The notes under the pieces: generated by a model
Told to the model about the DNA's origin: nothing
Database searches by the model: none
The model's input: the letters and a program-made list of their open reading frames with translations, nothing else
Made by a program: the position numbers and the translations under genes
Shown here: positions 60,168 to 62,351 of the stretch, in pieces
How the letters are laid out: each line of letters starts with the position of its first letter
Numbering within the stretch: position 1 is the stretch's first letter
Source: Coraliomargarita sp.
GTDB lineage: Bacteria; Verrucomicrobiota; Verrucomicrobiia; Opitutales; Coraliomargaritaceae
Assembly: GCA_965216325.1 (NCBI GenBank)
Contig: OZ244160.1
Span: 2,464,001 to 2,528,000, forward strand
Length of the DNA stretch: 64,000 nucleotides
Direction: 5' to 3'

Positions 60168-60268
60168 GGGTGGCCGGGTCCTATGCAATGTTCGGTCCGA
60201 TGAACCCCGTCAGGTCCGGAAGGAAGCAGCGGTAATTGGAACAACATGTCGTAGGGTGCCTGGCCACT
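60168..60268 (+). ncRNA. ffs: Signal recognition particle RNA (small, 4.5S type)
   Basis: Conserved CAGGTCCGGAAGGAAGCAGC core; terminal stem GTGGCCGGG/CCTGGCCAC; upstream of dnaX. Confidence 0.95.
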
Positions 60269-60363
60269 TTTGTGTCCGGATGTCGGGTTCGGCCAAAGAT
60301 TTTGCACTCTTCTAAAAAAGCCCCTTGCAAGGCTTTGGAAATGAGCGCTTCTTGAGTGCTTCG

Positions 60364-61518
60364 ATGGAACAAGGTTATCAAGTTATCGCGCGCCGCTGGC
60401 GTCCCAAGCAGTTCGATGAGCTGGTGGGGCAAGACCACATCATTCGCACCTTGCGTAACGCCATCGAAACCAACCGTATCGCGCACGCCTACTTGTTTGT
60501 GGGGCCGCGGGGCACGGGTAAAACCAGCTCCGCACGTCTGTTTGCTAAGGCGCTCAATGCTGAGGGTGGCCCCAGTGTTTCGCCGGACAACGAGTCTGAC
60601 ATTAGCAAGGCGATCATGACGGGCTCGTGCATGGACGTGATCGAAATCGACGGTGCGTCCAACAACAGCGTCGACCAGATCCGCGACCTGCGTGACGACT
60701 GCCAATACGCGCCCACGCAGTGCAGCTTCAAGATCTACATTATCGACGAGGTGCACATGCTGACTACTGCGGCATTCAACGCATTGTTGAAGACGCTCGA
60801 AGAGCCGCCGCCGCACGTGAAGTTCATTTTCGCGACCACTGAGTCGCATAAAGTGTTGCCAACCATCGTCTCGCGTTGTCAACGCTTCGAGTTCCGCCCG
60901 ATTGCGGACGAGGTGATCGTTGAGAAACTCAAAACCATTTCCGAAGCCGAAGGCATCAATGTCGAGCGCGCTGCGCTGGAGTCGATCGCACGACTGGCTA
61001 ATGGCGGTATGCGCGACTCGCAGTCGATCCTCGACCAGATGATTTCCTTCTGTGGCAATGAGATCGCCGAAAGCGATGTGCTCGATGTGTATGGTCTCGC
61101 TTCGGCAGATCGTATTGCCGAGCTCGCGCGCTCGATCGGTTCGCTCAACTACCCGGCCATTCTTGCGGCAGTGGACGCTTTTGCGGACGAGGGCCGTGAT
61201 CTGTTTCGTATTTTGCAGGATTTGCAGGCGCACATTCGCACCGCACTCTTGGATGCCATCGCGAACAAGGGCGCGTCCGACAAGCTTGGCACTCCGCTGA
61301 CCACTGAGTCGATCATGCGTATGCTGGATGCACTCCACCAAGGTGAGGCATCGGTGCAAAAAGGACTTTCTGAGAAGGTGAACTTCGAAGTGGTGCTGCT
61401 CAAGGCCGCTGAAGAGTCCCGCTCCCGCGCCATTGATAGCCTGATCAAACAGCTGGCGAATGCCGAAGTTGCTGAATCTGGCAGCGAGGGTGGTAGCGAA
61501 GGCGAAAAAAAAAACTAG
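60364..61518 (+). CDS. dnaX: DNA polymerase III subunit gamma/tau, zero-frame (gamma-length) product
   Basis: [42 protein letters not shown]; ends in A10-C-TAG. Confidence 0.97.
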
Positions 61519-61910
61519 TCTTTGATTCAGTCGAATCGACCGAGCCATTGCCGCCGCTGGTCTTACCCGAAGCCGCTCCGACGCCGGAGCCAATGGCGGA
61601 ACCCAGTGGCACGCCCATCGCCGTTGAAGTGGACGATGATCCCGATGCAATCCTGCGCGCCATGGCGGGAGAGGGCACCATCGTCGAAGAAATTACTGAA
61701 GAGGATGGTGTCGAAGAAGATCCGGATCCTTTTGGTGCTGCGGGCGCAGCCGTCGTCGAAGCTGCAGTCGCGCAGACCAGCCAAAATCTCATGACCGTTC
61801 CTGAGGCGGAAGCGAAACTTGGTGCCGAGGTGCTACAGGTGCTCGACCAGCGCTTCAAAGGTCGCGTCAGCGAGGTCCGTCACGTCGACGAGCGTGATTT
61901 GATTTTTTAG
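61503..61910 (+). CDS. Putative tau-specific C-terminal extension of DnaX in the -1 frame
   Basis: Open -1 frame from the A10 run ([17 protein letters not shown]...DERDLIF); Pro/Glu/Ala-rich linker; first ATG is internal (about 61593). Confidence 0.7.
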
Positions 61911-62065
61911 CAGACTGGCCTTGACAGAGGGCGGTTGTCTTGGCTTTTTGCCTGCTTCCCTTTTTTACGGGGCTGTTCTTTTCAAATCAATTTTCCTTGG
62001 CGATGTATTTCGCGAAAACGTGTCGCTTTGTCGCACGAATTGATTAAATTTACAGATAGACTTTA

Positions 62066-62332
<267 letters not shown>

Positions 62333-62351
62333 GGTATTTAGATACTGCGAC

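Follow-up and report, generated by a model that had tools for sequence, protein, structure and literature searches.

The window analysed here is a stretch of 64,000 nt from Coraliomargarita sp. (Opitutales), corresponding to positions 2,464,001-2,528,000 on the forward strand of contig OZ244160.1, in a genome that consists of a single closed contig of about 3.04-3.06 Mb with 53% GC. An open reading frame on the plus strand, running from the ATG at 60364 to a TAG that ends at 61518 (384 codons plus the stop in translation), encodes a gamma-like DnaX product with the AAA+ ATPase module, the lid and domain III. Pfam assigns residues 22-180 of the 384-aa product to DNA_pol3_delta2, 185-231 to DNAX_ATPase_lid and 236-357 to DNA_pol3_gamma3, and two NCBIfam models match above their cut-offs (NF004046 with 453.4 bits against 400, TIGR02397 with 413 bits against 250). 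This gene is the sole strong DnaX match in the genome, and its zero-frame product has the complete clamp-loader core, domains I-III.

The surroundings of the gene are partly conventional. Immediately 5' of dnaX, the plus strand encodes the small SRP RNA (60172-60268; Rfam RF00169, 65.4 bits), and ffs-dnaX is a common bacterial neighbourhood. A tRNA gene on the same strand follows dnaX (62066-62137), and the usual downstream partners are absent there. The 3' part of this tRNA and a terminator-like tail are duplicated 150 nt downstream (62105-62193 versus 62255-62343; 89 nt, 88% identity), a duplication that resembles the trace left behind by an element inserted into the tRNA gene. Opposite dnaX, the minus strand contains an antisense open frame of 489 codons (60181-61650), which is probably an artefact of composition.

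The unusual feature is the 3' end of the zero frame, which reads GGC GAA AAA AAA AAC TAG. The run of ten A's (A10), the proposed recoding (slippage) site, occupies 61505-61514 on the plus strand and begins at the second base of a zero-frame codon. The zero-frame stop (TAG, 61516-61518) adjoins the AAC codon that closes the run. In the +1 frame, translation at the run gives KKKTSL and then meets a stop two codons past the run; this TGA (61523-61525) would terminate translation of any transcript that lacks one A. The -1 frame, open from 61503, contains no stop before the TAG that ends at 61910, and its translation ends in DLIF. With the last AAA of the run taken as its first codon, the -1-frame extension, the tau-specific part, spans 61512-61910 (132 codons plus the TAG at 61908-61910), and the insertion of one A would yield a protein of about 515 aa (384 + 131). 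The initial annotation had described this arrangement, with a zero frame ending at the TAG after A10 and 384 codons, a -1 frame open to 61910 for a total of about 515 aa, and a +1 frame that stops at once, and every one of its coordinates could be reproduced from the sequence and its translations. The two neighbouring elements to which it drew attention are likewise present, namely a purine-rich GAGGGTGGT at 61486-61494 and a hairpin at 61522-61539, 6 nt after the heptamer A_AAA_AAC (61509-61515), and the hairpin forms in the minimum-energy fold.

A stop codon placed directly after a homopolymer calls for caution, given that long-read assemblies are error-prone at homopolymers and that this genome is a single closed contig. 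The initial annotation had raised the alternative that the run is a homopolymer error, of sequencing or assembly, in a gene that is in truth continuous; a related reading is that the DNA tract is phase-variable, with subpopulations of A10 and A11. Contigs from two sequencing runs bear directly on this point. Those of run X1 (depth 421), which is possibly the source of this DNA, show no differences and no gaps against 61000-62000. A 30-kb contig from run X5, an independent metagenome, differs from the same interval by 17 substitutions, again with no gaps and with the A10 intact. By our own count, all 15 of the X5 substitutions located 3' of the run fall at position 3 of the -1 frame, and the two upstream fall at position 3 of the zero frame.

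The initial annotation had also proposed an alignment of dnaX across relatives as a check on the run and its stop. The family set for this comparison comprised all family genomes returned by two whole-genome searches (25, including the window's own, plus 11; n = 36). All 36, from many separate assemblies, carry an A10 run whose first A is at codon position 2, followed by a zero-frame stop 0-6 codons past the run, a +1-frame stop 1-12 codons past the run, and a -1 frame that stays open for 91-154 codons. The flanks of the run vary freely among these loci, while all ten run positions are A. Runs of this kind are rare in the genome (14 A/T runs of at least 9, and 7 of at least 10, in the whole genome), and this rarity, together with the same position of the run in all 36 family genomes, argues that the site is more than chance. 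The indel-free A10 in the X1 and X5 contigs and in every family genome refutes the homopolymer-error alternative. Contigs would not reveal rare phase variants of the DNA, but an essential subunit is unlikely to rely on such variants, and we regard a continuous gene concealed by either error or phase variation as extremely improbable. The split of dnaX at A10 is genuine and conserved.

What does the -1 frame encode? In comparisons with two congeners, substitutions in the extension are distributed over codon positions 1, 2 and 3 as 14/7/60 and 20/7/64. Within a 48-nt segment that begins at the run's last AAA and extends beyond the first possible start, a TTG at 61548, four of the five substitutions between close relatives are at position 3. 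This distribution indicates that the extension is under coding selection from the run onward. The encoded polypeptide begins as a poorly conserved, acidic and proline-rich linker and ends in a conserved motif of about 40 residues (40 residues at 61788-61907 on the plus strand), in which G117, R123 and D129 are invariant (alignment A1). A profile of 20 extensions was compared by hhalign with the C-termini of eight relatives that have a continuous dnaX (91.5%, E 8.7e-7) and with five relatives that have a +1-frame extension (80.3%, E 1.4e-5), and both comparisons point to homology between the extension and the tau C-termini of uninterrupted DnaX. The same profile gave a chance-level match only against solved structures (HscA, E 4.9), and searches with the extension alone returned only a sub-threshold PEX14-like match in Pfam and no match in NCBIfam.

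The motif is a predicted binding element for the alpha subunit of DNA polymerase III. A complex was modelled between extension residues 75-132 and the last 330 residues of the genome's own DnaE (1245 aa), using self-built alignments. The model scored 0.72, with 0.00 for the best of three controls, and thereby passed a mark that 116 of 157 solved complexes and 2 of 215 mismatched pairs also reach. At least 97% of the contacts are shared between runs, the partner's pLDDT is 79 or higher, and the modelled interface lies between extension residues 93-132 and, in the 330-residue DnaE fragment, positions 230-310. Since structures of alpha-tau complexes exist, the pass may partly reflect likeness to them. 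According to the model, then, the extension motif would bind the C-terminal part of Pol III alpha, and it presumably does so in the cell as well.

If the extension is a coding sequence with a tau-like C-terminus, there would still be a way to make it without recoding: the locus could encode two separate proteins, a short DnaX and an independently started small protein. The TTG at 61548, which opens a frame of 120 codons, is a start that would serve this purpose. The comparative data are hard to reconcile with it. Among the 36 family loci, the first ATG, GTG or TTG occurs at a variable place, anywhere from 2 to 76 codons past the run; an SD-like motif precedes this first start at only four of them, and eight have no ATG in the extension at all. 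All 36 have a -1 frame that is open from the run itself rather than from some later point, and before the TTG, four of the five substitutions that separate close relatives are at codon position 3. Moreover, relatives with a continuous ORF carry this C-terminal motif as an in-frame part of DnaX. An independent start of the extension thus appears unlikely from the sequence comparisons, and the two-protein arrangement as a whole is a very improbable account of the locus. We conclude that the zero frame produces a gamma-like protein and that recoding produces tau, of about 515 aa.

Recoding could take place on the ribosome or at the RNA polymerase, and the first of these was the mechanism suggested by the neighbouring elements. 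In that scheme, a uniform A10 mRNA would undergo a programmed -1 ribosomal frameshift on A_AAA_AAC or A_AAA_AAA, perhaps with some transcriptional slippage in addition. Both slippery heptamers are in phase at the window locus (A_AAA_AAA at 61506-61512, A_AAA_AAC at 61509-61515), and in 25 of the 36 family loci the base after the run is G, which creates the E. coli-type A_AAA_AAG. The phase of the run is also fixed at codon position 2 in every family locus, a constancy that slippage by itself would not need. A ribosomal contribution therefore remains compatible with the window locus, since the phase of the run in the family always offers an in-frame heptamer.

Several observations nevertheless argue against the ribosome as the main agent. 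The fold of the 45 nt downstream of the run (-7.8 kcal/mol, z = 0.23) is matched or bettered by 115 of 200 shuffles; across the family, the 50 nt downstream have a mean z of -0.44, with z below -2 at 3 of 36 loci. A GGAG or GAGG core is found within 20 nt upstream at 8 of 36 loci, to be compared with 442 of 4269 background windows (10%). The initial annotation had pointed to the purine-rich, SD-like motif and the hairpin, which would imply ribosomal stimulation, a reading that we abandon: the hairpin is no better than shuffled sequence, and neither element is conserved. Its broader proposal, that the usual dnaX logic is inverted here, holds for the true split, for the gamma-length zero frame with domains I-III and for tau by way of recoding; the stimulators drop out. 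The tRNA complement is a further obstacle. The readiness of A_AAA_AAG to shift in E. coli is tied to the presence of just one Lys tRNA there, and in that species both A_AAA_AAC and A_AAA_AAA shift far less readily than A_AAA_AAG (PMC5009743); the genome considered here has a tRNA-Lys(CUU) besides the tRNA-Lys(UUU). Run positions 1-4, which lie outside the A_AAA_AAG heptamer, are as invariant in the family as the rest, and relatives in the order keep the run even when tau lies in the +1 or the zero frame. Taking both sides together, we consider a mainly ribosomal route to be an unlikely explanation for tau synthesis at this locus.

The evidence from the order deserves closer description. The order set consisted of 55 genomes outside the family (all 16 from a first search and all 39 further ones from a second), and a run of A9 or A10 is kept in 51 of them. 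Tau lies in the -1 frame in 36 of the 55 (29 with A10, 7 with A9), in the zero frame, as in the Thermus layout, in eight (4 with A10, 4 with A9), and in the +1 frame in six, all with A10 and one of them cut by a contig end. The frame of tau is ambiguous in one more genome (A9), and four have no run, three of these being small genomes of 0.8-1.3 Mb. Among 80 named loci that form a further, partly overlapping set, tau is in the -1 frame in 48, in the zero frame in 12 and in the +1 frame in 3; of the others, 13 have no run, 3 are cut and 1 is ambiguous. Nineteen loci from other orders of the phylum comprise 4 with the reversed layout and A10, 3 that are continuous with a run and 12 without a run, but these loci were hand-picked, some of them for a short open frame, and they are not a fair sample.

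Individual loci within the order add some detail. The large sister family (L053-L081) usually has the run followed by CTGATTGA, which places zero- and +1-frame stops within three codons; this double stop leaves the -1 frame alone open. The three genomes of 0.8-1.3 Mb (L091, L092 and L093), along with L085, have a dnaX that lacks an A run of at least 7 at the boundary and has a zero frame of 389-441 aa. Locus L124 has run flanks nearly identical to those of L116 and L117, where tau is in the -1 frame, yet the phase of its run is scored as 3 and its tau is placed in the zero frame, a discrepancy that suggests an upstream indel or an assembly problem in that record.

How can a single tract serve tau in all of these frames? 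The +1 layouts are beyond the reach of a -1 ribosomal shift, while slippage by RNA polymerase, which both adds and removes A's, would serve all three. The retention of an A9 or A10 run across the order while tau sits in any of the three frames therefore favours transcriptional slippage, although the support here comes from the order's other families and not from the genome of the window. Transcriptional slippage is also favoured because all ten A's are invariant in the family even though a heptamer would suffice for the ribosome, and because the stimulators are not conserved. An upstream hairpin was considered as a possible stimulator of slippage and rejected; over the 36 family loci, z for the 45 nt on the 5' side of the run averages -0.15 and drops below -2 at just one. 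The contigs from RNA runs that lie near the site both end before the A10 (X19 covers 61098-61356, and X20 covers 61000-61142). On this evidence, the window contains a reversed dnaX recoding site at which tau most likely arises by slippage of RNA polymerase on A10, a reading that we hold with reasonable though not full confidence, particularly as regards the step of transcription.

The slippage model is as follows. RNA polymerase would slip on the A10/T10 hybrid and thereby generate a mixture of transcripts. Those with the templated A10 would be translated into gamma (384 aa), whereas transcripts with A11 or A8 would join the -1 frame and yield tau (515 or 514 aa), which adds the acidic linker and the alpha-holding motif. 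A transcript with A9 would produce a 386-aa variant of gamma ending in KKTSL, and transcripts of the A12 or A13 type would again yield gamma, with one extra Lys in the case of A12. The products given for each count of A's are predictions from the translated frames; the ratio in which they are made, like the slip at transcription, is inferred.

Long runs elsewhere in the genome may be of interest in the same connection. Other A/T runs of at least 9 that lie deep within long ORFs (more than 1,200 codons) number only two, and both are between domains. One is an A9 at G000:C1:410649-410657 (L195), near residue 713, between the two parts of a glycoside hydrolase-sulfatase fusion of 1374 aa; the other is an A9 on the sense strand at G000:C1:1887503-1887511 (L196), near residue 709 of metH and between the pterin-binding and B12-binding parts. 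Slippage may also occur at these two runs and give rise to truncated forms of the proteins.

For the interpretation of genome sequences, the practical consequence is that annotation pipelines would call this dnaX truncated, or would report a short dnaX next to a hypothetical ORF. Read correctly, this is a single gene for two products, of which the essential tau depends on recoding. The order-wide pattern offers comparative support for transcriptional slippage in reversed dnaX genes. On balance, we lean toward regarding the tract of the Opitutales, with its three frames, as a natural experiment in which slippage by RNA polymerase supplies enough one-base indels for the cell's needs, single-base changes in the run flip the default subunit, and tau in the present genome would be made from slipped transcripts only. 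The natural variants of the order could be used to gauge how readily a bacterial RNA polymerase inserts or deletes bases on A9 and A10.

The closest known systems are other dnaX genes with two ORFs. Antonov et al. (2013; NAR 41:6514, PMC3711429) described 17 such genes with a poly-A tract, from 12 genera; the tracts have 7-10 A's, mostly 10, and nine genes have A10. They favour transcriptional realignment on the basis of alignment with the A9 site of Thermus, and the review of Atkins et al. (2016, PMC5009743) repeats this account of reversed dnaX. The initial annotation had named E. coli and Thermus as the established cases, both starting from a full-length zero frame, a picture that is outdated, given that the reversed layout was described in 2013 (PMC3711429). 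The locus in the window resembles the 2013 type in having two adjacent dnaX ORFs with a -1 change at the DNA level, a junction at A10, a zero-frame stop directly after it and a tau that needs recoding, and it has the hallmarks of that class: the -1 change, the conserved A run and the tau-specific second ORF. There is no essential difference at the window locus. Our literature search for dnaX recoding in the Verrucomicrobia/Opitut- lineage gave no relevant report, and a search from 2013 on for realignment to tau at a poly-A tract in dnaX returned the paper of Antonov et al. as the only relevant one. The dnaX of the window is a real site of an already known kind, belonging to the reversed type published in 2013, and it opens no new kind of biology. 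What the order adds, with tau in three frames, is a modest comparative extension: only -1 frame changes are reported in the portions of the 2013 description on which we draw (PMC3711429), with no mention there of a +1 layout, whereas relatives in this order have +1 layouts as well.

Comparison with the classical systems brings out the reversal. The E. coli site lies in the same gene and at the same place, the end of domain III, and it too has an in-phase, A-rich slippery heptamer. However, the zero frame of E. coli encodes tau and the shift produces gamma; the SD-like element and stem-loop needed there are not conserved here, and the window genome has a second Lys tRNA, with anticodon CUU. A different kind of precedent is mxiE of Shigella flexneri, where transcriptional slippage is required for the longer product (PMC1088944). 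There, as would be the case here, homopolymer slippage fuses two overlapping ORFs, and the longer functional protein needs non-templated nucleotides; mxiE differs in being an unrelated gene for a transcription activator, with a U run in the mRNA, rather than the gene of an essential replication protein. Another related system is the dnaX of Thermus thermophilus, in which A9 directs programmed transcriptional slippage (Larsen et al. 2000; PMC1088944, PMC5009743). The two share an A run at the gamma/tau boundary (A9 there, A10 here), near stops in the two unproductive frames, and the derivation of two clamp-loader subunits from one gene. In Thermus the templated frame encodes tau and slipped transcripts give gamma, whereas here the templated frame encodes gamma and tau would need the slip. 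The Thermus layout itself, with either A9 or A10, is present in eight genomes of the same order as the window.
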